From an uncultured Poribacteria bacterium (GTDB lineage Bacteria > Poribacteria > WGA-4E > WGA-3G), in the NCBI GenBank assembly GCA_951828515.1, contig OX639992.1, positions 1,826,008 through 1,890,007 of the forward strand: a stretch of DNA of 64,000 bases, written 5' to 3'. This document shows positions 9,480 through 29,273 of this stretch, piece after piece. The position numbers and the translations under genes were made by a program. Each line of letters opens with the position of its first letter. The stretch's first letter is position 1. A model generated the notes under the pieces. The model was not told where the DNA came from and made no database searches. It worked only from the letters and a program-made list of their open reading frames with translations.

Positions 9480-10307
9480 CTAATACGCAACTTTAATTTC
9501 GCCCCAGAGGGTCGTGAGCTTGTCTTTGACATCGACATCAAAACCGTTTTTGTTTGTAACGAGAATGCTGTCGATCCGTCCCATTCCCCAACTTTCGTGC
9601 CAAACACCGACAGAACCGGCACCCTTGGTAGTGGCTTTGTCGGATTCAAGTATTGGGTCTCCGAGGTCATCGGAGGGTGCGAACAGGTCTTTGATTTCAT
9701 CAAGTTTCTTATACCAGACTTTAACGTTGTTGCCTTGGACCTCAACGCGTCCGAAATAAGCGACAGCATTGGTTTGATCGAGTCCAGCCCCTAAGCCGTG
9801 CGGTACACTGTCTATTTCCTTACCACCATTTTCACAACCGCACTGATCAAGGCATTGTCCGCTCGGACAACACCCGTCTTCCAGACTCATGAAAAGGACG
9901 GCCGCTGTCTCATTATAGCCAAAGACAACGAGATAGCCTTTATCGTCCCCTTTTCTACGGAATTGCAGACCGAAACTATCATCATCACCAAAGGAAAAGA
10001 CGGCTTGGACGATGCCGTCGGTAAAGTTTTTCACACCAGGCAGTTCTGTGTTACCAGAGATACCGCATCCCTCAGCGGTTTGCTTCATGGATCTTTTTCC
10101 ACCGATTTTGCCGCCTTCAAAATCATCCTCACCCCAGATGGTGCCCGCGTTTTCCGGTTTATAGTTTTTGACATTGTTCACATCAGCATTCGGTTTTGCG
10201 TCCTTGGAGCCGGGCTCAAAATCGGCGTAAAACACAACTTGACCGCTGGCGTGAAACGAAACAAGTAGACTCAAAACGAGGCTGAAAAGAAAAAAACGTG
10301 TCTTCAT
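9480..10307 (-). CDS. secreted hypothetical protein, paralog A (Cys-rich core DGCCPSGQCLDQCGCENGG)
   Basis: Signal peptide MKTRFFLFSLVLSLLVSFHASGQ. A GGAGGAG RBS precedes the ATG at 10307. It aligns over its full length with the adjacent paralog at 10564..11388. Confidence 0.55.
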   Translation of the reverse strand: MKTRFFLFSLVLSLLVSFHASGQVVFYADFEPGSKDAKPNADVNNVKNYKPENAGTIWGEDDFEGGKIGGKRSMKQTAEGCGISGNTELPGVKNFTDGIVQAVFSFGDDDSFGLQFRRKGDDKGYLVVFGYNETAAVLFMSLEDGCCPSGQCLDQCGCENGGKEIDSVPHGLGAGLDQTNAVAYFGRVEVQGNNVKVWYKKLDEIKDLFAPSDDLGDPILESDKATTKGAGSVGVWHESWGMGRIDSILVTNKNGFDVDVKDKLTTLWGEIKVAY

Positions 10308-10563
10308 GAATGTCTCCTCCGATTTCATAAAGAGTTGTGTTGCCGTTTATTCACAAGCAACAGCATGATGACAAGGCTATAGGCATCGCTTAGATACCCG
10401 TATCATCAAAGATGCCTTGTCTAAAACTAAAGTGGTGTTGGGTGAGGTACGGAGACCTCACCCGACAAAGATGAGTAGTGCAATGCAGAAAGACTGAGGT
10501 ATGGTAACCTCGCCCTGCAACGCCAGTTGATTCTATGCTATTTGTCTATATTAAGGCAGGAGA

Positions 10564-11388
10564 CTAATAGCTGCTTTTAACGTCGCCCCACGTCGTAGAG
10601 AGTTTGGCGTGCGGGTCGACATCAGTGGTGCCACCAGGACCGGTAACAAGGACGCTATCGACTCTTCCGTTGCCCCAACTTTCGTGCCAGATACCGACAG
10701 TACCGGGTCCCAAATCATCTGCGCCGTCATATTCAGCGACTGGATCGCCGAGTTCACTGGAGGCGGCGAAGAGATCGGACACATCGTCAAGTTCCATATA
10801 CCAGACCTGGATGAGACTTCCGATGACTTCAACGCGCGCAAAATAGGCGACGCTGTTGTCTTGTGAGAGATCTGCACCTAAGCCGTGGTCAACCCCGACG
10901 AGTTCATTCCCCCCATTTTCGCAGCTGCACTGGTCGAGACACTGCCCGGAAGGACAGCATCCATCTGCGAGGCTACCGATGATAATTTGGGGTGTTTCGT
11001 TATAGCCGAATCCGACGAGATAACCGCTGTCGTCTCCGACGCGCCGGAATTGGAAACCAACGCCATCATCGTCTTGCCATGAAAAAACGGCTTGGATGAT
11101 ACCGTCAGAGAAGCCATCGACACCGGGCAGCGGTGTATTACCGGAGATGCCACACCCTTCGGCAGATTGATGCAAGGCACCGCTGCCATCAGGAAATTCA
11201 TCTGACTCCACCCAAACGGTTCCAGCGTTTTCCGGCACCCAATTTGCTGGGTCGTTAACGCTGACATCCGGGATCGCTTTAGAGCCGCTTATTTCAAAAT
11301 CAGCATAGAAAATTACCTGTGCGCTGGCGTGGCCAATCAGTATAACTGAAAAAAGTGTGATGAGCACCATAAGGTGGGTTCTTGTCAT
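10564..11388 (-). CDS. secreted hypothetical protein, paralog B (Cys-rich core DGCCPSGQCLDQCSCENGG)
   Basis: Signal peptide plus full-length similarity to 9480..10307 (shared segments QVIFYADFE, AEGCGISGNT, GCCPSGQCLDQC, VAYF.RVEV, WHESWG). An AAGGAG RBS lies upstream of the ATG at 11388. Confidence 0.55.
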   Translation of the reverse strand: MTRTHLMVLITLFSVILIGHASAQVIFYADFEISGSKAIPDVSVNDPANWVPENAGTVWVESDEFPDGSGALHQSAEGCGISGNTPLPGVDGFSDGIIQAVFSWQDDDGVGFQFRRVGDDSGYLVGFGYNETPQIIIGSLADGCCPSGQCLDQCSCENGGNELVGVDHGLGADLSQDNSVAYFARVEVIGSLIQVWYMELDDVSDLFAASSELGDPVAEYDGADDLGPGTVGIWHESWGNGRVDSVLVTGPGGTTDVDPHAKLSTTWGDVKSSY

Positions 11389-11741: not shown

Positions 11742-12650
11742 CTAAAGACTGCTTGATTGCTTATAGTCTTTCAACCTATTTTGCAACGTCCGGACGCTAA
11801 TCTCCAATACTTCCGCGGTTTTCGTTCGATTTTCGTTCTGCCACGCCAAAGTGTCGAGGATAAAGGTTTCTTCCATAGTCTTAAGGCTTGCTCCGAGAGG
11901 AACAGACACAGTTTGTTGGTTTTCAGGTGTGTAATTTTCTTTTGGTATGTTAACTCGCGGTTGCCCAAATGCCAAAATTTCTTCAGGCAGATGCCCAGGT
12001 AACACAGCCTCTCCATCTGACAAGATAACTGCGTGGATTAAAGCGTTTTCTAACTCTCGTATATTCCCGGGCCAAGGGTAGTTTTGGAGACGTGCGAGCG
12101 TCTCTGGTACTATTTTACGCACTGGCTGCGCGTAGGTATTACAATGTTTCTCCACAAAGTATTCTGTCAACATGCGAATATCCTCTCGCCGCTCGCGTAA
12201 GGATGGTAAAGAAAGAGAAACAGCATTCAATCGATAGTAAAGGTCTTTGCGGAAAGTGCCATTATCAACAGCCTCCGAGAGGTTACAGTGCGTAGCCGCA
12301 ACGATTCGGACATCCACTGGAATCGGCTTTGTTCCGCCTAAGCGTTCAATCTCACCCGTCTCAACCGCCCGTAACAACTTCGCTTGTAGGGAAAGTGGCA
12401 TATCTCCAATTTCATCAAGGAAGAGTGTCCCGTTGTGTGCGCTTTCAAATTTGCCGATGTGTTGCGTTTTCGCGTCCGTAAATGCACCTCTTTCATGTCC
12501 AAACAATTGGCTCTCAAGCAGCATATCCGGAATTGCGGCACAGTTGACAGAAACCATTTTGTTCCCCGACCGATCACTGTTTTGGTGTAAGGCACGTGCT
12601 ATCAACGCGTTAGGATATTTATAAAGAGGTCTATTTACTCGTTGGGAAAC
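11742..12650 (-). pseudogene. sigma-54-dependent transcriptional activator fragment (AAA+ sigma-54 interaction domain C-terminal part plus Fis-type HTH); N-terminus missing
   Basis: It encodes ...ALIARALH...VNCAAIP...[10 protein letters not shown]...LLRAVE (ESFGHE-like GHERGAFT loop) plus a C-terminal HTH. The Walker A GESGTGKE and the receiver/sensor domain are absent. The frame opens only at a stop near 12654, inside the 3' end of the upstream gene, and the track start is a TTG. Confidence 0.55.
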
Positions 12651-14635
12651 CTCTTAGCGAGATACTTGGGGTTTGATCTGATGCTGGGTGGATAGCGGAT
12701 CTCCCATACCTTAACGAGTGCTTTCGCGAAATTGTTTGTGGGATAGATAGGTACAAATGCGCTGCTCGGCTCCCCACGCAGAAACGGAGCAGTAGTGGTT
12801 TCCTTTACGGTTAACATGAGATGGGTTGCCCTATGGGATCTCAGAAATTCTAATGCCTCGCGTTCGGTTTCAGCGAAGTTGATATGCTGTCGGTAGAGAG
12901 CTATCCAATGGGGTATGTAGTGGTCCTGATCAACAATGGTTTTGACCCCGGCGAGGACATTGAGTTGACTTCCATGATTCCAGTGCGCGGCAACAACAGC
13001 ATGCCCGGGTAGATTGCCTTTCATCCAATCAAACGCCTGCGCGAGGCTGCCTCTCCCCGGTATAGCCCTGCGAGATTTGATAGCGGCAGGTAGTGCCCGG
13101 TTTGCGTGCCCTCCGACAGGTGCATAGAACAGAATTAGGGTTAACATCAAGACAGGGATTGCTGTTCTTAATAGAAGCTGCGGGACACGGTGTTTCACTT
13201 TATTGGCATAGAAAGTGGCTAAGAACAAGAGGAGGTCTGCGGTAAAGAAGGCGATGGATATCCCGACAAAAAAATTGTAGCGTTTCGCATCCCGTGCCAG
13301 TGCTACCCAAAAGAGAAACCATAGGGTAAATGCAACATAGATGAATTCATTCTTAACAGCACTTCGTCGTCGCCAGGCAAGCACAAGGAATCCAATGACG
13401 CAGGTAGCAACCGCAATACCGAACTCAATATTAACAATGGATGTTCCCAAAAGCGGATCAAGCACACTGCGGTAAAAGGTTGTTCCCGTGAACAGGACCA
13501 GTGGTGCGGCGAACACCAGTCCTTGCCATTTCCAAAAGCGGAAGAGTGCCATAGCAATACCGAGACTCCCCAACACAAAAACACTACCGTAATGCGTCAT
13601 CCAATAGGCAAGAAAAGTGCTTTCCAGTTCCTCAATGCTTTGCATGAGTGCGCTTTGACTGAAAGGCACAGTGGTATCGGTAAGGGTTTTGGACTGCATG
13701 AGGATATAACCGAGTGCGAGCATGATGCTGGCAAGGGTTAATCCAAACGCAAGGGTGCGTGCGTGGAGACGAAGCCAATCAGCGAAAGGTCTCTTTGTGA
13801 TGAGAAGGTGGCGGAGGTAACGGATAACTAAAAGGGCGATCGGTGGGACAAGCATCAGGGCGGCGATGTGCGTTGAAAAGCCTTGCCCGCTTCGATACGC
13901 AGGAGATACAAGATACAGGGGTGGCACGAAGATGCAGACCCAGATGAGATATACCTCTAATCTGTCTTCTGTTTCGGAGGTGAGAAACCGCCATATCTCA
14001 ACCAATAGAATGATACTGAGAAAAACGCCGAAGCCTTCCCAACTGACACCCCCAAGGAACATAGCGAAACCACTCGCGAGTGTCCATAAAAGACACTTAC
14101 GTAGCTGTTGCGATTGCAATGAAGCGAGATAGGTTGTGACGGTGAGGATACCGAGCAGGAGGCACCAGCTGTCTCTATCTCCAAAACCGGCAGTGCTGCG
14201 GTTAATCGCGCCCGGGAGTGTTGCCAGAAGCACACCAACGATGCTTGAAAAGAGAATACCGAAAGTGCGATAAAAAAAGAGACAGAGCGCCCCAAGTCCA
14301 CTGCAGAACCAGACAACGGGTGTGTAGACAGTAACGTGATAGAGTGTAACCTTCGGGAATACCCACGCGATCCCTTTGTGAACGTAGGCGAGGACGTATC
14401 CGTAGAGATTGAGGGTTTGCGTTAAATCTCTACCGAGTGGCAGCCATCGGTTCATATCCCGTTCTGGCAACTTTCCGTTTTCGGAGATGAGCTGCGCCTG
14501 CCAGTAGTAGAAGTAACCATCTGATTCGGTTAGCTGTCCAGCGGGGACATTTGTGATTCCTTGCAGCCGAATGAAAGCGGCAAGGCATAGGATACCGACA
14601 ATCAGAAAGATCGCACTTAATTTTTGTATCTTCAT
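12635..14635 (-). CDS. STT3/AglB/PglB-type oligosaccharyltransferase-like GT-C membrane protein
   Basis: 666 aa polytopic protein. Its first external loop [12 protein letters not shown]....[14 protein letters not shown] parallels eukaryotic STT3 EFDPYFNYR...DDRAWYPLGR. A later [10 protein letters not shown] sits where WWDYG would be. Confidence 0.6.
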
Positions 14636-14776
14636 AACATTATTCTAAACTTTGGACAATTTTAAGCGATACGGCTGTCGTCCCTATGGGGCTGTCCATT
14701 TCGTTTTCATTTCTCTGATTCTTACAGAGGACGGGGTAGTTGCTCCGATGGTGAGCAACTACCGTGATAGGTTGAA

Positions 14777-15025
14777 TTAGTGGCAGGTATTTTCATATTC
14801 ACCACAAGCCTGCTCCGTGTTGTCTTTCGCACTTTCACACCGCTCTGCATTCCCACTGGCACACGCAATACTTTCATTCTCTTGTGCATCACTACACGCC
14901 TGTTGAAGGCTACTACAGTCACTAGCTTCTGCTTTCTGTAACATCCCGTGAAACGTCCCGAAACCAAATGTGAGTGCGAAGATGAGGACGAGGGCTGGAA
15001 TACTTGCAATCAATGTAGATTTCAT
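14777..15025 (-). CDS. small secreted Cys-rich protein
   Basis: 82 aa with a signal peptide (MKSTLIASIPALVLIFALTFG), 6 Cys in an acidic C-terminal half, and an AAGGAG RBS. Confidence 0.4.
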   Translation of the reverse strand: MKSTLIASIPALVLIFALTFGFGTFHGMLQKAEASDCSSLQQACSDAQENESIACASGNAERCESAKDNTEQACGEYENTCH

Positions 15026-15268
15026 GTTTTATTTTCTCCTTTTTCCGCCCCTTGATGGCGCGGAGATTTTACTAAAATATTCCGAACATGCTAAGGCACA
15101 TTCAATATATATCTATGAGCAATTTACATGCCAATAGCAAGAAGCCATACCGTTAGGGGATCTCGGCAAAATACAACTCTGCATATTTTGCGCACTCTGA
15201 AAATTTTACATACCTGACCCTGCATATTTTTCATAATTCCATAAGACGCATGCACCTAATGCAGAATA

Positions 15269-15857: not shown

Positions 15858-18731
15858 TTAATTATCGCGCTGAAAACGGAATATCCCATTATGTTCTGTA
15901 CCGACGTAAAGTGTATTACGATCAACAGCAAGGGAGGTAACTGTGTATGGTATTTCTGGAGCAATTTGTTTCCAAGTGTTCGTTCGGCTATCTACTTGAT
16001 AAACCCCGCTGGCACATACACTGTAAAGGGTTGAGCCATCCGTCGCGATCTGATCCATAAGGAGTGGACACCCGTCAGTATCGGTGAGTGCATGCCAGGT
16101 TTCACCCTCGCGTGAACGCATCACTCCTGCGTCCGTTGAGATGTAGAGGGTTGAACCTACAAAGAGAATGTCTTTGTAGTAAGCAAACGGAAAGGCGAGG
16201 CTTTGGGTAATGTTCTTCCAAGTATTTCCACCATCCAGAGACCGGAAGAGGTCCCCCTCTCGTTTACCGGCATAGATGGTATCGTCCGAAGCGGCAAGAG
16301 CGAAACCTGTCTTAAGAGGTGAGATTTCTCCACCATCTTCCAAACCGGTGTGGTGCCACTCCGTCTCGCCGGGTCGCCACCTGAAAAGTTTCCGTCGGTG
16401 TTCCATAAAAACGGCTTCCCCGACGAGGGTAAAACTCCCGTTTGTTCTGTCTTCTGTCAGGAATAAGTTCTCGTCCCATAATTGTTCCGCTTCACGATCC
16501 CTGACGTTTGTTTCTCTGGCTTTTTGGAGCCTCTTCTGCAATTCAGTGTAGAGATCGTCTTCCTCGAAATCCGGCATACCTGGAACTGGTATCAGGGCAT
16601 CACTGCTAACGGGAAGGTAAAAAAGTTGCGTCCGATTACCGGGAACACTGCTGAGATGGAGAGTTGTATTGCTTGTCTGTATCTTTGGATAGACCAGAAG
16701 TTTACCTTCACTCTCCACGTTAAGGGTCTCCCAAGATTCACCACTGTTTTTTGATTTAATAATCTCTCCACCGGTGACTGCATAGAGAGCGTTTTCGACG
16801 GAACTTAGATTTTGAACATTGAAATTCGCGATCCCTGTTACAAAGGGATGCCATGTGTCCCCTCCATCCGTCGAGCGCGTTATTCCGCCGTAATAGGTTC
16901 TGTAAAAATTGTTTTCGTCCAACGCGATAGTAGGAGAAGCTCCAAATGCATGTCGGTCATTTCCAAGATACATCCACGTCTCACCGGCATCATAGGAGCA
17001 TAATATTCCACCAAAACTTATTAACAGAATCTTTTTCCCGATTGGGACGACTCTGACTGCGACTCCCATCTCAGGGGTATGCGGCGTAATATCGGTCCAT
17101 GAATCGCCGAGGTCGGTCGAATAGAAGACTTGGGCTTCAGGACCATGCCGTCGATTTATGCTCGTCCCGACGTAGAGCCTCTCCTCGGCAACTGCCAAGG
17201 ATTTAATACCGTGATCAGTCGGCACCGGCAATTTTTTCCAATTACCGGACAATCGGAAAAGCCCCCGACTCGTTCCGACAAAAAGCGTGTTATCAATGGC
17301 AAGCGCGTCCCGAATATGGAACTCGAAATCACCATCTTCCCGGACAATATCGGATCGCAAGACATGTCCTATGAATTCCCACTGCTTCCCAGCATCTTCG
17401 GAACGAAACACTTCGGTTCTGAGGACGAGGTACATCGTCATATCAGCATTCCCAGACTTGTGTTGCTGAGTGCCATCGGTAATCACCAATGCGACAGGAC
17501 GTCCCTCGGGGCGTGAGCCGAGAACACTCCAGGTTTTACCCCTATCCGTTGAGGCTAAAAGTTCATCGGATGTCAGGAGATAGAGGGTATCCCGGTATTC
17601 TGTCATGACCTTGCTGAATTCTCGCTTCGGACCGCTGGCACTGACAAGTGTCCACGCGTCTGTCTGTGGTGTGAATCGGTAGAAGCCGGGTTTCGCAACA
17701 GCATAGAGGGATTGGTCAGCGGCGAGAAAGAGTCCGGGATATGAAACCTCCCCTGTTCCGTTCGCTTGAATCCATTGCGGTTTCGCGGCGCGAGCGTCTG
17801 CCTCCTTGGGAGGCAAGGTAGCAAGCAAGTTGGGTCCCGGTTGTTGTCCGGCGCCTGTATTTTTGCCGAGCGTATCGGTGTTTCCGAATTGGTTTCTGAC
17901 ATCAGGCTTTAGTTTCAACGGAAGCACAACGGGTGCCTCAACGAATTCAATTGTCATCTCCGATGTTGCGTCTAAACTGTAAGGTTGCTGGAAACGATAC
18001 AGCGCACGTGTACCCACACCAATCATTAGAAGAATGAGAAACGTTGATGCGAAGGAAAACCCCCAGGGCACCCAAGGTTTACTTGCAGAAGGGGCAGTCG
18101 GCTGGAGACGAGCGATTTCTCGCATGACGTTCGCAGTCAGGGTCGACGGTGCTTGGAAAATACCGGAGACATCGTGGAGGAGGTGTTCTTGCGTTTTCAA
18201 TCGCTTGCGAGCCCGGTGGAGCCGACTTTTGATGGTGTTCGGGGATACACCCAAAAATTCACTAATCTTTTCACACGGCATCTCTGCGAGATAGTGCATC
18301 GTTACAACCGTGCGTTCGCTCTCTGGCAGTTTTTGGAGAAGACGCTTGACAAGGTCGCGCTGGTGCTCAACGTCTGCAGCTTCAGCACCTGTTGCCTCAT
18401 ACGCTGCATAGGAGAGTTCCGCCAGTTGGACCCCGGGCATCGCATCCAGAGATGTCGTTGGCTCCTGTTTCTTCCGCATCCACGCGATACACTGACGCGC
18501 CGCAATTACATAAAGCCACCCGAGAAAATGATACGGGGGTTTCAGGAGCGACAACTTTTTGTAAGCTTTCAGGAAAATATCTTGTGTGAGCTCCTGGGCT
18601 GTGTGAAAGTCGCCGATCTTCCGCCACACAAAGGTGTGGATCGGTTTCTGGTATCTGTTGACAAGCACGGTAAAAGCGTTGTCGTCTCCCTCTAAAACCC
18701 GCTGAATTAAGTCAAAATCATTGGTCTCCAT
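15858..18731 (-). CDS. ECF sigma factor fused to transmembrane anti-sigma-like segment and large BNR/Asp-box repeat (beta-propeller) extracytoplasmic domain
   Basis: N-terminal sigma-70 region 2 (DLIQRVLEGDDNAF...) and region 4 (ESERTVVTMHYLAEMPCEKISEFLGVSPNTIKSRLHRARKRL). One TM helix (WGFSFASTFLILLMIGVG). At least 8 Asp-box motifs S/TxDxGxTW (STDRGKTWS, SEDAGKQWE, STDLGDSWT, SYDAGETWM, STDGGDTWH, SKNSGESWE, SLDGGNTWK, SREGETWH). Confidence 0.75.
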   Translation of the reverse strand: METNDFDLIQRVLEGDDNAFTVLVNRYQKPIHTFVWRKIGDFHTAQELTQDIFLKAYKKLSLLKPPYHFLGWLYVIAARQCIAWMRKKQEPTTSLDAMPGVQLAELSYAAYEATGAEAADVEHQRDLVKRLLQKLPESERTVVTMHYLAEMPCEKISEFLGVSPNTIKSRLHRARKRLKTQEHLLHDVSGIFQAPSTLTANVMREIARLQPTAPSASKPWVPWGFSFASTFLILLMIGVGTRALYRFQQPYSLDATSEMTIEFVEAPVVLPLKLKPDVRNQFGNTDTLGKNTGAGQQPGPNLLATLPPKEADARAAKPQWIQANGTGEVSYPGLFLAADQSLYAVAKPGFYRFTPQTDAWTLVSASGPKREFSKVMTEYRDTLYLLTSDELLASTDRGKTWSVLGSRPEGRPVALVITDGTQQHKSGNADMTMYLVLRTEVFRSEDAGKQWEFIGHVLRSDIVREDGDFEFHIRDALAIDNTLFVGTSRGLFRLSGNWKKLPVPTDHGIKSLAVAEERLYVGTSINRRHGPEAQVFYSTDLGDSWTDITPHTPEMGVAVRVVPIGKKILLISFGGILCSYDAGETWMYLGNDRHAFGASPTIALDENNFYRTYYGGITRSTDGGDTWHPFVTGIANFNVQNLSSVENALYAVTGGEIIKSKNSGESWETLNVESEGKLLVYPKIQTSNTTLHLSSVPGNRTQLFYLPVSSDALIPVPGMPDFEEDDLYTELQKRLQKARETNVRDREAEQLWDENLFLTEDRTNGSFTLVGEAVFMEHRRKLFRWRPGETEWHHTGLEDGGEISPLKTGFALAASDDTIYAGKREGDLFRSLDGGNTWKNITQSLAFPFAYYKDILFVGSTLYISTDAGVMRSREGETWHALTDTDGCPLLMDQIATDGSTLYSVCASGVYQVDSRTNTWKQIAPEIPYTVTSLAVDRNTLYVGTEHNGIFRFQRDN

Positions 18732-19573: not shown

Positions 19574-20251
19574 CTAAAAAAGTTGCTGGGCTGCCTGGAG
19601 GCGTTCGGGAGAGCCGATATCTATCCAATCGGGGTCGGTTTTAAGAACATGAAGGTTTTCTAATTTCGGAAGGACATCGTAGGAGAGAGAAAACACGTCG
19701 CTATCGGGAAACGATCGAGCAATTTTGCTGTTGAAGAGGTAGACACCGGCATTGATATACCCACTTTGGTATGTGGTAGGTTTTTCCAGGAATGCCGTAA
19801 TCTGCCCTGTATCCGAAGAGATGATTTCACCATAAGGACGGGTGTCATCCACCCAAACAGATAGCAGTAAACCTGCCATGTCCTCTCGAAATGTAGATAC
19901 CATTTCGTTGAGCGAGAAATCTCGCCACAGGACATCCCCGTTCAACACAAAGAACGGGGAACTCTGTATGTACCGCATTGCGTTTTTGATAGCACCCCCG
20001 GTGTCAAGTTTTTTATCTTCTTTACAATAGCGAATGGAAATGCCATTGTAAGACTCTCCGATGGTGTATTGGAGCACATCATGGAGGTGCCCAGTCGCGA
20101 GGATGAGTTCTTGGACTCCAACTTCCTTCAGGAATTCACACTGCCATTGTAGAATAGAACGGTTTTTGATTTTTAGGAGAAGTTTGGGGGTATGTTTGGC
20201 GGTGGCCCCCAGGCGAGTCGCATGTCCACCGCATAAAATGATTGCTTGCAT
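19574..20251 (-). CDS. sugar-phosphate nucleotidyltransferase (NDP-sugar pyrophosphorylase family)
   Basis: MQAIILCGGHATRLG N-terminal nucleotide-binding motif; 225 aa. Confidence 0.75.
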   Translation of the reverse strand: MQAIILCGGHATRLGATAKHTPKLLLKIKNRSILQWQCEFLKEVGVQELILATGHLHDVLQYTIGESYNGISIRYCKEDKKLDTGGAIKNAMRYIQSSPFFVLNGDVLWRDFSLNEMVSTFREDMAGLLLSVWVDDTRPYGEIISSDTGQITAFLEKPTTYQSGYINAGVYLFNSKIARSFPDSDVFSLSYDVLPKLENLHVLKTDPDWIDIGSPERLQAAQQLF

Positions 20252-25572: not shown

Positions 25573-27207
25573 TTAACCGGAACGGTTAAGCCCATTTCCA
25601 GCAAGAGGTACCTCGCGCTGGAAGTGCTTGAAAACAGATTCAACTTCGGCAGGGGTATGGTGTTTGGACAATACTTCTGCTAAAGCGTTTTCAAGGCGTT
25701 CAAATCGGTTTGTCTCCTGCCGATAGACACTCGGATAAGCCATTCCGGTTCTCGGGTCATAGTATCGGCAGAACAGGGGCTGACACAGGGATAGAGGTGT
25801 TGATGATTGGCAGCGTGTATTGGCACGCGCTGAACCTTGCTTAAACAGCCTCACAATCTCCTGAGCGGTGCGTTCCCACGTATATTTTGCTACGAATCCT
25901 TTTGCTACCTCCCTATACTTTTCGCATCTTTCCGTGTCACTTAGTAATTGGTTTATAGTTTCAGATAGATGCTGCATTGGAACCTCCAAATCGTTTCCTT
26001 TTCCAGCAGGACACTGGACAAGTACTCCCGCACCCTCAATTTCCGGCGGTAGTCCATATTTTGAAATCACAACTGCAGGGGTCCCGTATGCCATTGCTTC
26101 CAAAACCAATGAGGGGGAAGTCCCTGGTACAGCAGGGAAACAAACGACATCCAATGCTTGGAAGAATATGGGCAATACTGATCGCGTGCTTTCGTCACTT
26201 GCGTTGAAGATCACCAAGTTGCTCAGCGGATTCCGATATGCGTCAGCCAAAATTGAGTCGTAGACAAAGAAAACAAGGTGTGGGTTTGCAGTCGCGATAT
26301 CCAAGATATTCCGCATTCCAGCGTTTGGTTCAAATCCCGAAATAATACCCACCACGGGCCTCTGTGCAAACAATGGATTATCTGTAAGCACGGCAGCGTG
26401 TTGCTTGGCTAATTCTTTCCCGATAGGTTCAACGACATTGATGCCCTCTGAAATTGTGTGCACCCCTGCAGAGTCCACCCCGAATTCTGAGAGCCAGTCG
26501 GTAAGCCATGTAGCTTTGGACAGAATTAAATCTGTGGATTTCTGTGCCGTGTACGAATTCAAAGCAGATTCAAGGATTAAGGCTTGCATTCGTCTGTCAC
26601 TCTCTAAACAGCGAAGGACCGGCAGATTTTTAGAATAGTATAGGATATCGTGACTTGGAAATTGTCCAAGCAGTAAGATACCATCGTAGCCATCCATTGC
26701 ATACCAAGGGAACCAGAAATTTGAATGCTTCTCAATTATATCGCGATTTGATACGAACCCTCCAAAATCATGTCCCGGCTCCCCATTGATGTTGAAAGTT
26801 TCTAATTCCGCCAGTTTTGAGAGTGCTACCAATAGATGGAACCGGTTCTCGTTTGTTACAGGGTCCTGAACACTTTTTTCTGGAACAAACTGAAAGGGAA
26901 CAAGTAATTTGAGTCTCCTATCTGATTGAGAAGGTATGTAAGTGCTCCAAGTAGGACTTGACAACTGTCCCCGTTGACTGAGCCGTTGCAACCGTTCAAT
27001 GCCTTCAAAAATCTGCTCTATTTTGAATTTCGATCTTAACCTCTCAACAGTTGCATAAAGTGTTTCAGTGAGATTTTGATCAAGGAGTTCCCATTCCACA
27101 TCGTTAATTTCAACAATAGTATCAGATTCTAAGTCAGCGGCGTATTTTCGCCCCGACTGCTCAAATTTGCGGTGTTGATGCACTCGATATCTTGTTTCTA
27201 CCTTCAT
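25573..27207 (-). CDS. GT4-family (GT-B) glycosyltransferase with N-terminal PqqD/RRE-like domain
   Basis: C-terminal PAVPGTSPSLVLEAMAYGTPAVV is the GT4 E-x7-E region. The N-terminal ~90 aa (YAADLESDTIVEINDVEWELLD...IFEGIERLQRLSQRGQL) follows the PqqD pattern v.eLN..a..iw.l.dG..t..ei...l...y...eI..Dv..fl..L...GlL. Confidence 0.7.
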   Translation of the reverse strand: MKVETRYRVHQHRKFEQSGRKYAADLESDTIVEINDVEWELLDQNLTETLYATVERLRSKFKIEQIFEGIERLQRLSQRGQLSSPTWSTYIPSQSDRRLKLLVPFQFVPEKSVQDPVTNENRFHLLVALSKLAELETFNINGEPGHDFGGFVSNRDIIEKHSNFWFPWYAMDGYDGILLLGQFPSHDILYYSKNLPVLRCLESDRRMQALILESALNSYTAQKSTDLILSKATWLTDWLSEFGVDSAGVHTISEGINVVEPIGKELAKQHAAVLTDNPLFAQRPVVGIISGFEPNAGMRNILDIATANPHLVFFVYDSILADAYRNPLSNLVIFNASDESTRSVLPIFFQALDVVCFPAVPGTSPSLVLEAMAYGTPAVVISKYGLPPEIEGAGVLVQCPAGKGNDLEVPMQHLSETINQLLSDTERCEKYREVAKGFVAKYTWERTAQEIVRLFKQGSARANTRCQSSTPLSLCQPLFCRYYDPRTGMAYPSVYRQETNRFERLENALAEVLSKHHTPAEVESVFKHFQREVPLAGNGLNRSG

Positions 27208-27216
27208 TTTACAACC

Positions 27217-28926
27217 TCACGCTGTCGCTTGAATAAAGCCGTAGCATCTCGCAAGTATCGCCTTCGCGGTATCCTCATCTTCAATGAGTTCACTAAGTAT
27301 TGTTTCCACTTCCCTGACGGTATGTTCTTTGAGAAGGCTAATAACCAATCCGTCCTCAACTTTCTGGTTAAAAATTCCGTAGGGATTTACAAGCATTTCA
27401 TATCGCGAATTCATATTGAGTACTATGGACTTCTGTTCTAACCGTTTCTGATGGGTGTTCCAATAAGATGAAAAAAAAGTGTTGAGTCGATTTTCACAGA
27501 ACAATTTCTTTTTCCAATTGAGTTCCGAGAACAAGTCAAGGATACGTTGCGCTGTTTTCTTCCAAGTGAACGTTTGTGCGCGATTCAGTGCCTTTTGAGC
27601 GTAGGCTGCTCGTAGGGAATTGTCGTTTAGCAACAGATTTACCCCTTCCGAGAAGTCAAGTGGAGAAGCATAACTGGCAATGCTCGTGATGTCCTGTTCA
27701 AAGGGAACGGTAGGAACGATCAAACCCGCATCTCCCACGACAGAAGGAACACCATCAAAATCGGAGATGACCGGTGGTACACCGCACGCCATTGCTTCAA
27801 GCACTGTTAATCCGAATGTCTCCTCGCCAGACACGGAAGGGAAACAATATACATCAAAGGCGTTGTAAATCAGCGGTAATTTTTCACGATCATAGAATCC
27901 GATATAGATAAGGTTCTCGGGAATTTTTCGCTGTGCGTATCTACCCTCATTCTGACCCGCCTGCAAAAAGAGAAGATGTGGGTTGAGTTCTGCCAACTTC
28001 AGGTAGATAGATGCCCCCTTTTCAGGTTGGAAACGAGAGAGGTAACCCACGGTGGGCATTGTTTTAATTCGTTCATCTCCTACGCGTTTCGCGAGTTCAT
28101 TCTTTGCCTGTTGTTTATCCATTGGACGGAATAAGTTTAAATCTACACCATTTGCGACAGTATTGAAAACACCTTTATCCCAGACGAACTGGGAATAAAA
28201 TTCGCCAACAGAATCTGTAGGTGCCGTGAAGGCATCATAATCCCGTAGAGCAGTATAGTGTAACAATACAGAACGCACGTTTGTACCACCATGTCCACCC
28301 ACCGAATGCACTTGCATTAGAATCGGAGGGAGTTCGGGACATCGGAATAGTGGGATGAATCCTTCTTGGCTACGGTCAGAGTGGATTGTAAGGATACCTT
28401 CATATTGCGAAGCAATCTTTTCGGGTATACGCACCATGTCGAGCAGACTCAAATCCACTTCGTAGAAATTCTCGCCAAGTTTTCTGTTTTGTGTGCCAGC
28501 AAAGTGAAGTACTGCCTGGTCTTTCAGAGCCTGAATAGTATAAGCGAGAGCAACATGGGTCCCAGCACTGGTATTTTCTATGTCTGAAACAGCATCGGGA
28601 GCCAACCCCTGGACCACCAATAAAAAATGTGGACAATCTCCTTTTTTGAAAAATAATACGTCGGATTTCTCACCACGATTAAGGAGTAAACCCCGTCCCA
28701 CATATTCGATCAATGTCTCAAATGCTTCTTCAATATCACCATCACTGTAAGCGGTTTTTAATGTCTCTATAATTTCCTCTGTCGTCCGTGTCTCCGCGAG
28801 TTTCAGAACATCAGCAATCGCAGCAGAGATTTCGACGAGACTTGCTTTATCCAAGTCTGCGGCGTAAAGTCCACCATCTTTTTCAAAAATATGGAGTTGA
28901 TGAAGAGGTTTCGGAAAATCAAGCAT
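27217..28926 (-). CDS. GT4-family (GT-B) glycosyltransferase with N-terminal PqqD/RRE-like domain (paralog)
   Basis: PSVSGEETFGLTVLEAMACGVPPVISD is the GT4 motif. N-terminal LYAADLDKASLVEISAAIADVLKLAE.RTTEEIIETLKTAYSDGDIEEAFETLIEYVGRGLL is PqqD-like. Start uncertain (ATG at 28926 or TTG at 28950). Only 10 bp separate it from the downstream paralog. Confidence 0.7.
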   Translation of the reverse strand: MLDFPKPLHQLHIFEKDGGLYAADLDKASLVEISAAIADVLKLAETRTTEEIIETLKTAYSDGDIEEAFETLIEYVGRGLLLNRGEKSDVLFFKKGDCPHFLLVVQGLAPDAVSDIENTSAGTHVALAYTIQALKDQAVLHFAGTQNRKLGENFYEVDLSLLDMVRIPEKIASQYEGILTIHSDRSQEGFIPLFRCPELPPILMQVHSVGGHGGTNVRSVLLHYTALRDYDAFTAPTDSVGEFYSQFVWDKGVFNTVANGVDLNLFRPMDKQQAKNELAKRVGDERIKTMPTVGYLSRFQPEKGASIYLKLAELNPHLLFLQAGQNEGRYAQRKIPENLIYIGFYDREKLPLIYNAFDVYCFPSVSGEETFGLTVLEAMACGVPPVISDFDGVPSVVGDAGLIVPTVPFEQDITSIASYASPLDFSEGVNLLLNDNSLRAAYAQKALNRAQTFTWKKTAQRILDLFSELNWKKKLFCENRLNTFFSSYWNTHQKRLEQKSIVLNMNSRYEMLVNPYGIFNQKVEDGLVISLLKEHTVREVETILSELIEDEDTAKAILARCYGFIQATA

Positions 28927-29273
28927 ATTTTTTGTCTCTATATACAACAAACTGAATCAACACATTATTTTATTTCAACTCGAAGAATGCCAATTCTTGA
29001 AATAATGCTCTGTTACAACGACAGATATCTCTAACGAATTTTTTACGTATCACTCAGCATTCTCTATGTTGCAATTCCCGTGCCAATTGGAAGAACCCAC
29101 GCCGTTCGTGAATTTTAGGAAAATGGGACTACGCAAATTTTTCGCAGTCGGCAAATTTTGCATACCGAATCTCTGCAGATATTGCAGAGTTCCAAAAGGC
29201 AGTGGCACCGGCGCGCGATATATCGGGGACGAACACTATGGTAAACTTTAGAATTAACTGTACACTCTGCACC

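Follow-up and report, generated by a model that had tools for sequence, protein, structure and literature searches.

A membrane glycosyltransferase family of the STT3 superfamily in Candidatus Poribacteria with conserved catalytic motifs and a degenerate Ser/Thr-pocket motif

The window analysed here, a 64,000-nucleotide stretch of DNA from an uncultured Poribacteria bacterium, carries on its minus strand a gene (12635..14635) for a short-form membrane glycosyltransferase of the STT3 superfamily (GT-C). The 666-amino acid product is probably an STT3-derived, single-subunit glycosyltransferase that is catalytically competent and takes its glycan from a lipid-linked donor; with the Ser/Thr(+2) pocket lost, it would not read the canonical sequon. 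Its descent from a canonical WWDYG oligosaccharyltransferase (OST) is suggested by a tree without support values.

The open reading frame runs from ATG to stop at exactly the bounds given in an earlier note on this DNA, and all motif strings quoted there were found in the 666-residue translation. No second copy of the gene was detected within the 64-kb window by tblastn. For placement of the protein, the feature list of PMC8342417 was used to define membership among OST catalytic subunits of family GT66 (Stt3/AglB/PglB). The claim that the gene encodes an STT3/AglB-type homologue held, as above-chance similarity was found with sequence profiles and with two fold searches. TIGR04154 (archaeo_STT3, NCBIfam) matched the protein with E = 2.2e-14 and 52.8 bits, which falls short of the curated cutoff of 450 bits. 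A search with PF02516 (STT3, Pfam), proposed as a check in the earlier note, gave a divided answer: with E values allowed up to 10, the 666-residue protein had no match, and 11 of 25 family members matched at E ≤ 0.01 (best 6e-19). By phmmer, an 11-residue segment of the protein aligned to VAAWWDYGYQI in the C-terminal domain of yeast Stt3 (2lgz). A profile of 25 family members matched mammalian STT3A (E ~4e-7), the two being in register at the EL1 block, at AG-x-x-D-x-[DE] and at the WWDYG position. A broad profile gave E values of 3e-51 for STT3A, 5e-25 for AfAglB and 3e-10 for PglB; on these scores the EL1 signature is closer to eukaryotic and archaeal STT3 than to Campylobacter PglB, in line with the eukaryotic/archaeal signature block read there in the earlier note. 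A GT-C fold with an STT3-type transmembrane core and a C-terminal globular domain was found, and the AF2 model of the protein was of moderate quality (pLDDT 71, pTM 0.72).

Conservation was followed on a family alignment of 78 members (77 sequences at some positions) and a broad alignment of 50 sequences; the catalytic motifs given here all lie on the minus strand. The EL1 block ESDGYFYY (residues 37–44; 14504..14527) aligned to HEFDPYFNY of STT3A, whereby E37-S-D39, the first DXD with catalytic Asp39, fell on E-F-D. D39, Y41 and Y44 were invariant in 77 of 77 family sequences, and D39 was also invariant across the broad alignment. For the EL1 block RWLPLGRD (residues 63–70; 14426..14449), which aligned to AWYPLGR of STT3A, R63, W64, P66, G68, R69 and D70 were identical in all 78 members. 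The second DXD, D153-R-D155 in EL2 (14171..14179), aligned to D-N-E of STT3A within the AG-x-x-D-x-[DE] block and was likewise invariant (78/78). In EL5, the TIXE/SVSE-type motif reads SIEE (S333-I-E-E336; 13628..13639), the profile string vaElq falling on SVSEHQ of STT3A; the family pattern is [TAS][VMI]xE, with E336 and L337 kept in 78 of 78 sequences. Arg452 (13280..13282), a putative lipid-phosphate site before the "LAPV" helix, was located by alignment of AkRfdFflaPv with VMVRLMLVLAPV of STT3A. Its counterpart in STT3A is the Arg of VRLMLVLAPV, and it is invariant both in the 78 family members and in the broad alignment; by way of STT3A rather than a direct AfAglB alignment, it would be the equivalent of AfAglB Arg426. 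The D-x-D motifs and the catalytic Glu, an alignment of which had been called for, are therefore both present and invariant in the family, and the catalytic set of Asp39, D153/D155, Glu336 and Arg452 is intact in the window protein and unchanged across family members.

On the acceptor side, HWNHG (12971..12985, minus strand) occupies the WWDYG position as a degenerate Ser/Thr-pocket motif, within a 10-residue string spanning residues 549–558 (window 12962–12991). This replacement, read from the sequence in the earlier note, was confirmed by alignment to yeast Stt3 and STT3A. The only conserved WWDYG positions in the family are W552 (77/78) and G555 (78/78). Position 551, the first Trp of WWDYG, is never Trp (entropy 2.36 bits), and position 553, the Asp, is occupied by Gly, Ser, Asn, Arg, Ile, Thr, Pro or Val and rarely by Asp (2.70 bits). 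Both positions vary even inside close paralogue groups, and drift inside groups of at least 60% identity spoke against paralogue-specific fixed WWD variants, which would have pointed to new defined specificities. At the DGGK or DNXTZNX[T/S] position, a 10-residue segment was aligned with RTTLVDNNTW of yeast Stt3; it contains DQDH (D569-Q-D-H; 12920..12931, minus strand), of which the first Asp alone is common to those motifs. K565, T566, D569 and D571 are invariant or nearly so in the family. After the strand ATHLMLT, a segment of 150–250 amino acids starting [ST]x[IL]GSDxxxDR is found in the long family members and in WWDYG relatives. By its spacing relative to D583/K586 of yeast (PMC8342417), GSDxxxDR would correspond to the DK motif. 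In the columns of the family alignment, the window protein has in place of this segment a non-conserved, variable linker of 16 residues (12761..12808, minus strand), and such short forms make up 67 of the 78 members. The suggested comparison with WWDYG and DK/MI thus recovered the second Trp and the Gly, with the first Trp, the Asp, the DK/MI segment and DGGK gone.

To our knowledge, characterised OSTs of all three domains keep W-W-D together with a DK/MI-type motif; the bacterial examples that we know of are few and come mainly from Campylobacter and Desulfovibrio relatives. WWDXG has been described as essential (PMC12229607), and the WWDYG-type motif forms one half of the Ser/Thr pocket, of which DK/MI is the second half (PMC8342417). 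The W-W-D of this pocket is absent from the HWNHG protein. An ordinary N-oligosaccharyltransferase, still modifying N-x-S/T sequons and with the WWDYG changes as tolerated variation, would fit the retention of all catalytic motifs, of the TIXE/SVSE-like motif and of the second Trp and Gly. His and Asn of HWNHG are also capable of hydrogen bonding (His551 and Asn553 could bond a hydroxyl), and active Desulfovibrio PglBs show natural variation at the fourth position (WWDWG), in DGGK and in DK/MI (PMC12229607). However, the known active variants keep W-W-D, whereas the first Trp is never present in the poribacterial family, the Asp position is of high entropy even among close paralogues and the DK/MI-type block is deleted; we consider this explanation unlikely. 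The pointer to N-glycosylation in the earlier note, taken as a classical N-x-S/T reading from the gene alone, was not upheld. With the first Trp and the Asp of WWD unconstrained across the family, the DK/MI segment absent and DGGK not kept, the evidence favours the options it had also named, a different acceptor-binding chemistry or a paralogue with a different function.

Conserved donor-side and metal-site residues next to a degenerate acceptor-side pocket would also suit an enzyme acting mainly as a lipid-linked oligosaccharide (LLO) hydrolase, which frees glycans into the periplasm and glycosylates no acceptor. LLO hydrolytic activity occurs in eukaryotic, bacterial and archaeal OSTs (PMC8342417). 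Mutations of the yeast DK motif suppressed hydrolysis while transfer was kept (PMC8342417), and therefore loss of the DK block is not obviously pro-hydrolysis. Furthermore, simple hydrolysis would hardly account for the several diverged paralogues in each genome and their distinct conserved surroundings, and conservation still extends to the TIXE-like strand of EL5 and to the periplasmic core domain, which makes this reading quite improbable.

Among known systems, the best sequence and fold matches were the eukaryotic STT3A and STT3B (OST catalytic subunit, GT66). Shared with these are the nearly identical EL1 signature E-x-D-x-YF-x-Y ... W-x-PLGR, the AG-x-x-D-x-[DE] block, S-[VI]-x-E in EL5, the Arg before the "LAPV" helix, the transmembrane core and the luminal/periplasmic core domain. 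Unlike STT3A/STT3B, the window gene is solitary: no genes for OST subunits were seen in its vicinity. Its product has x-W-x for WWD and DQDH for the double-sequon DNXTZNX[T/S], lacks the segment with the DK motif and has a C-terminal domain of only ~140 amino acids. Archaeal AglB, including the short AglB-S1 and AglB-S2 of Archaeoglobus fulgidus, keeps WWDYG and DK/MI, whereas the poribacterial family does not. AglB-like relatives have FAHWWDYGYW and a GSDxxxDR block, neither of which is present in the window protein. The organism name obtained for this AglB-like group was of Nanoarchaeia. Bacterial PglB (Campylobacter; Desulfovibrio) retains W-W-D and DGGK/DGGR and is encoded in pgl glycan-assembly clusters; the window gene has neither the PglB motifs nor an adjoining glycan-assembly cluster, and such a cluster surrounds the WWDYG relative P0167.

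That the protein functionally belongs to another GT-C family (ArnT, PMT, YfhO or DPY19-like), with a monophosphate sugar donor, a lipid, O- or C-acceptor and an STT3 likeness due to the shared GT-C core, is very improbable. The sequence profiles and both fold searches led to the Stt3/AglB/PglB superfamily and ruled out assignment to ArnT, PMT or YfhO, an outcome that the earlier note had named as counting against its proposal; none of ArnT, PMT, YfhO and AftA/Emb was the best profile or fold match. When 25 family members were searched against Pfam, a single weak Dpy19 match was the only one to other GT-C families. No significant sequence relationship to the DPY19 C-mannosyltransferases (PF10034) was found, and unlike DPY19 the window protein has an OST-type C-terminal domain and the OST motif register.

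The distribution of the family was narrow, with Candidatus Poribacteria accounting for 80 of its 80 best genomic loci; among the loci recovered, the gene family is restricted to this phylum, in which genomes hold 2–5 or more paralogues. In the searchable literature on Poribacteria with OST, N-glycosylation or GT66, no description of the family was found. The genome of P0167 is probably poribacterial, judging from a flanking housekeeping protein and shared genes. The window gene is of full length and shares 95% identity with the nearest orthologue; dN/dS is 0.12–0.18 against orthologues (0.17 against the closest relative), which indicates an active enzyme under purifying selection.

Orthologous loci were compared over 6 kb only, and the conserved neighbours of the window orthologue group were a small secreted protein and a sigma54 activator. 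The former is encoded upstream and in the same orientation (14777..15025, minus strand) and has 82 amino acids, six conserved Cys and weak similarity to DUF6520 (Pfam E = 4e-4, below cutoff); 22 loci of the group show this order of the two genes. The Cys pattern was conserved in an alignment of the 82–85-amino acid Cys-rich proteins, in which no N-x-S/T was kept; nor was one conserved in a 103-amino acid membrane protein, another conserved neighbour, and these results ruled out a dedicated canonical acceptor among these proteins. A sigma54-type −24/−12 promoter element, TGGCATGTAAATTGCT (15118..15133, minus strand), with one mismatch to TGGCAC-N5-TTGCW, lies ~92 nt upstream of the ATG of the small gene at 15025. 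In 15 of 22 orthologous loci the small gene is preceded by this element, which is essentially absent ahead of the other paralogue groups. In the interval that separates the small gene from the STT3-like gene, RNA folding identified an 11-bp stem-loop (14735..14763, minus strand) with no T-run after it; the fold of 14700–14790 on this strand had −24.3 kcal/mol and z = −4.2, with equally stable shuffles in 0 of 200. Downstream lies a sigma54-dependent activator (AAA+/Fis HTH; 11742..12605, minus strand) that is N-terminally truncated: the Pfam Sigma54_activat match begins at profile position 37, the Walker A region is missing, and in comparison with L003 a stretch of ~432 bp is deleted, with the junction at ~12605–12612 of the window. 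In orthologous loci the activator has 431–437 amino acids. Two operon genes of other orthologous loci (355 and 103 amino acids) are missing in the window and in its two closest relatives, and from these losses the window locus could be in the course of being shut down. No lipid-linked-glycan assembly genes adjoin the STT3-like gene. A nucleotidyltransferase (19574–20251) and two GT4 genes (25573–28950) are 5–14 kb away behind unrelated genes, and the link to a nearby glycosylation cluster proposed earlier was not supported on that ground.

The truncated activator and the missing operon genes would accord with a decaying remnant or pseudoenzyme in the window genome, but this is the least credible of the explanations and was ruled out, since the open reading frame and all catalytic residues are intact, dN/dS indicates constraint and the sigma54 promoter element persists with a single mismatch.

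For the preferred explanation, an STT3-derived transferase released from the sequon, the catalytic and acceptor roles are deduced by motif logic. On the periplasmic side of the inner membrane, the metal site and Arg452 would bind a glycan linked to polyprenyl phosphate or diphosphate. Asp39 of EL1 and Glu336 of EL5 would then activate the acceptor nucleophile, and the glycan would be transferred. With no pocket for the +2 hydroxyl, the enzyme would choose its acceptor independently of the canonical N-x-S/T sequon, and the acceptor would be either a peptide recognised in another way or a non-protein molecule. The TIXE motif of AglB pairs with the sequon backbone; by analogy, the TIXE-like strand kept in this family might likewise pair with the backbone of a peptide, and the acceptor may be an Asn-peptide.

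More broadly, and only tentatively, it is possible that Poribacteria have multiplied an STT3-derived enzyme and abandoned sequon reading for a new class of acceptors, be it proteins that need no N-x-S/T or an envelope molecule other than protein, with one paralogue under sigma54 control and paired with the small secreted Cys-rich protein. A bacterial phylum would then hold several STT3-type copies per genome in which the catalytic centre is under selection and the Ser/Thr pocket has decayed; canonical WWDYG relatives, encoded within a classical cluster for glycan assembly, probably occur in this phylum as well. This would constitute a natural experiment on the STT3 scaffold once it is released from the sequon. 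The family members are candidates for sequon-independent glycosylation tools, and the presence of a eukaryote- and archaea-like STT3 lineage in bacteria may inform the discussion of OST evolution.

The open reading frame that the earlier note placed at 12635..14635 was confirmed by translation as an exact ATG-to-stop match of 666 amino acids on the minus strand, and the strings quoted from it were found at residues 37–44 (ESDGYFYY), 63–70 (RWLPLGRD) and 549–558 (the WWDYG-position string, reading HWNHG at 551–555). The window has a G+C content of ~47.5%, and public assemblies hold one identical protein and hundreds of relatives, those named being Candidatus Poribacteria. A Pfam search with the window protein gave zero matches; the sole NCBIfam match was TIGR04154 (archaeo_STT3; E = 2.2e-14, 52.8 bits versus a cutoff of 450). 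The sole phmmer match among PDB sequences was the C-terminal domain of yeast Stt3 (2lgz), in which an 11-residue stretch of the window protein was aligned opposite VAAWWDYGYQI. A profile built from 25 family members matched mammalian STT3A (E ~4e-7), and the alignment kept register at the EL1 (external loop 1) block, at AG-x-x-D-x-[DE] and at the WWDYG position. A broader 50-sequence profile, distant relatives included, matched oligosaccharyltransferase (OST) catalytic subunits only: STT3A (3e-51), STT3B, yeast Stt3, AfAglB (5e-25) and PglB (3e-10). In its alignment with STT3A, the family-invariant Glu336 corresponded to the SVSE Glu and Arg452 to the Arg preceding the LAPV helix. Pfam STT3 was matched by 11 of the 25 members (best 6e-19). 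The homology to STT3 is solid and, judged from sequence, the window protein belongs by descent to the Stt3/AglB/PglB superfamily.

For conservation counts, 78 full-length family members drawn from 83 loci were aligned. Invariant residues comprised D39, Y41, Y44, D60, R63, W64, P66, G68, R69, D70, D153, R154, D155, M331, E336, L337, R452, G555, N559, V560, T566, D569 and D571; W552 was kept in 77/78. In the window protein the expected fold was found, as were the first and second DXD motifs, TIXE/SVSE and the conserved Arg. An STT3-type fold and an OST-type periplasmic core are established, and the metal, catalytic and lipid-phosphate residues are intact.

The first Trp of WWD falls at position 551, where none of the 78 members has a Trp (His 34, Asn 18, Asp 8, Arg 7, others; 2.36 bits), and position 553, its Asp, was occupied by Gly (22), Ser (20), Asn (15), then Arg, Ile, Thr, Pro and Val (2.70 bits). 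Both positions varied even within paralogue groups at least 60% identical, one of which contained HWAYG, HWTYG, HWGHG, DWIHG, HWVYG, NWNYG and HWGYG; this drift points to relaxed constraint and argues against new fixed specificities. In the window protein, DQDH occupies the DGGK/DNXTZNX[T/S] position. After the strand ATHLMLT, a segment of 150–250 amino acids starting [ST]x[IL]GSDxxxDR is present in the long family members and in every WWDYG-bearing relative; the whole segment is missing from the short forms (67/78 members, the window protein among them). From its spacing, we infer that the GSDxxxDR block is the counterpart of the DK motif of yeast, D583/K586/M590 (PMC8342417). The Ser/Thr-binding pocket is built jointly by WWDYG and DK/MI (PMC8342417), and WWDXG is essential for function (PMC12229607); with WWD variable and the DK-type segment absent, the +2 pocket is thus not conserved, whereas the catalytic and donor side is. 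This loss of elements of the Ser/Thr pocket is established, and a canonical N-x-S/T OST in which the WWDYG changes are tolerated variation is unlikely. With WWDYG, DGGK/DNXT and DK/MI not found and its scores below the curated thresholds of the family models, the window protein should not be classed as an N-oligosaccharyltransferase.

We propose that a polyprenyl-(di)phosphate-linked glycan would be bound at the periplasmic face by the STT3-like enzyme and passed to an acceptor that Asp39 and Glu336 would activate, the +2 hydroxyl not being needed for acceptor choice; the donor of AfAglB is a monophosphate (PMC8342417). The retained TIXE-like strand makes a peptide acceptor possible. DPY19, with an STT3-like fold and a different acceptor, provides a precedent. 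Action instead as a hydrolase of lipid-linked oligosaccharide has only a slight chance of being correct. A functional member of another GT-C family is very improbable: a refuting assignment to PMT, ArnT or YfhO was looked for by Pfam, and 0/25 members matched any of these. A decaying gene is barely credible, since dN/dS values of 0.12–0.18 against nine orthologues establish purifying selection and the gene is therefore maintained.

When 1.84 billion representatives were searched exhaustively with a profile, 1,424 relatives were found at E ≤ 1e-3 and 265 at ≤ 1e-30. Close relatives (~665–830 amino acids) had a degenerate WWDYG motif; distant relatives (~840–1030 amino acids) mostly read AAWWDYGS, with an AglB-like group reading FAHWWDYGYW, one cluster of which carries the name Nanoarchaeia. 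In a rough neighbor-joining tree without support values, the degenerate family formed a single derived clade among WWDYG-bearing relatives, and the same tree suggests independent loss of WWD in further branches. Outside the poribacterial family, degraded forms (SWEYG, DWSYG, SWDYG, TWDHG and NWTLG) were seen in relatives of ~850–950 amino acids (search hits P0176, P0182, P0220, P0228, P0154, P0157, P0233 and P0246), and the motif may therefore have been lost repeatedly. A scan across genomes, one for each GTDB species, confirmed 205 loci; those ranked in the top 80 were all Candidatus Poribacteria, and a single genome supplied up to five of them.

Clustering of neighbors at 83 loci showed that neighborhoods differ by paralogue group. 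The usual order in the window's orthologue group is an ECF-sigma/beta-propeller fusion, an SNase-like protein (97 amino acids), a secreted Cys-rich protein (85 amino acids), a 355-amino acid protein, a 103-amino acid membrane protein, the STT3-like gene and a sigma54 activator (431–437 amino acids, intact in orthologous loci). In the window, the 957-amino acid fusion of an ECF sigma70 factor and a BNR/Sortilin-type beta-propeller lies at 15858-18731 (minus; also in L001 and L013-L019); such fusions, often in several copies, occur near STT3-like genes at 48/83 loci. The Cys-rich protein (14777-15025, minus; 82 amino acids, weak DUF6520 similarity), always encoded ahead of the STT3-like gene in this group, has six conserved Cys (C-x6-C ... 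C-x7-9-C ... C-x6-C); no conserved N-x-S/T was found in it, and it might serve the STT3-like enzyme as partner or substrate. The 355- and 103-amino acid genes (L001 6280-7661, with equivalents in L005-L023, L035 and L072), placed between the Cys-rich and STT3-like genes at most orthologous loci, are missing from the window and its closest relatives, L003 and L004; the larger product is membrane-anchored, and the smaller has a C-x-C-C motif and a basic tail. Between the Cys-rich and STT3-like genes in the window is a stable 11-bp stem-loop without a T-run (14735-14763, minus; z = -4.2 versus shuffles), which could act as an attenuator or in mRNA processing or stabilization.

Upstream of the Cys-rich gene lies a sigma54-type -24/-12 element, TGGCATGTAAATTGCT (15133..15118, minus); TGGCAC-N5-TTGCT was present there at 15/22 loci of the orthologue group and essentially absent upstream in other paralogue groups, and this conserved, group-specific element suggests a sigma54-dependent operon. 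Downstream of the STT3-like gene, the activator (11742-12612, minus) is 5′-deleted: relative to L003, the closest relative, ~432 bp comprising the intergenic region and the 5′ part of the activator gene, Walker A included, are gone, suggesting that the cognate activator is broken in the window genome. Tandem paralogous genes (9480-10328 and 10564-11388, minus; 282 and 274 amino acids, ~66% DNA identity) with signal-peptide-like N termini are kept downstream in the closest orthologous loci, and no Pfam family was found for them. The suggested link to a nearby glycosylation cluster is not supported, the nucleotidyltransferase and GT4 genes being 5–14 kb off with unrelated genes between.

In a second paralogue group (L033 8036-8587, L026, L025 and others), a 183-amino acid CDP-alcohol phosphatidyltransferase consistently follows the STT3-like gene and a MacB/FtsX-type permease precedes it, which hints at a lipid-related role. 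In a further group, genes for an SDR and a small GT2 lie downstream of the STT3-like gene.

P0167, a canonical WWDYG STT3 homologue of 903 amino acids, lies in a glycan-assembly cluster (contigs L083 10001-16790 and L084 10001-19036) ordered STT3, GT2, GT2 and Wzx-type flippase; L084 adds a third GT2 and a pyruvyl transferase, and L083 has a Bac_transf gene further downstream of the flippase. The cluster is a candidate for a true N-glycosylation locus in Poribacteria. Named relatives of the flanking 2-oxoacid oxidoreductase are exclusively Poribacteria (69–76% identity), and the adjoining GT2 shares 65–73% identity with genes from named Poribacteria contigs; from these similarities the P0167 genome is probably poribacterial. 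Only a few bacterial Stt3/AglB homologues were reported by Lombard 2016, and no description of the degenerate poribacterial family was found in the searchable literature. With this cluster alongside the degenerate family, the phylum probably combines a canonical OST and the glycan pathway belonging to it with a multiplied set of pocket-less derivatives. Such motif loss together with paralogue expansion is unusual, in a family whose enzymatic function we infer from its sequences.
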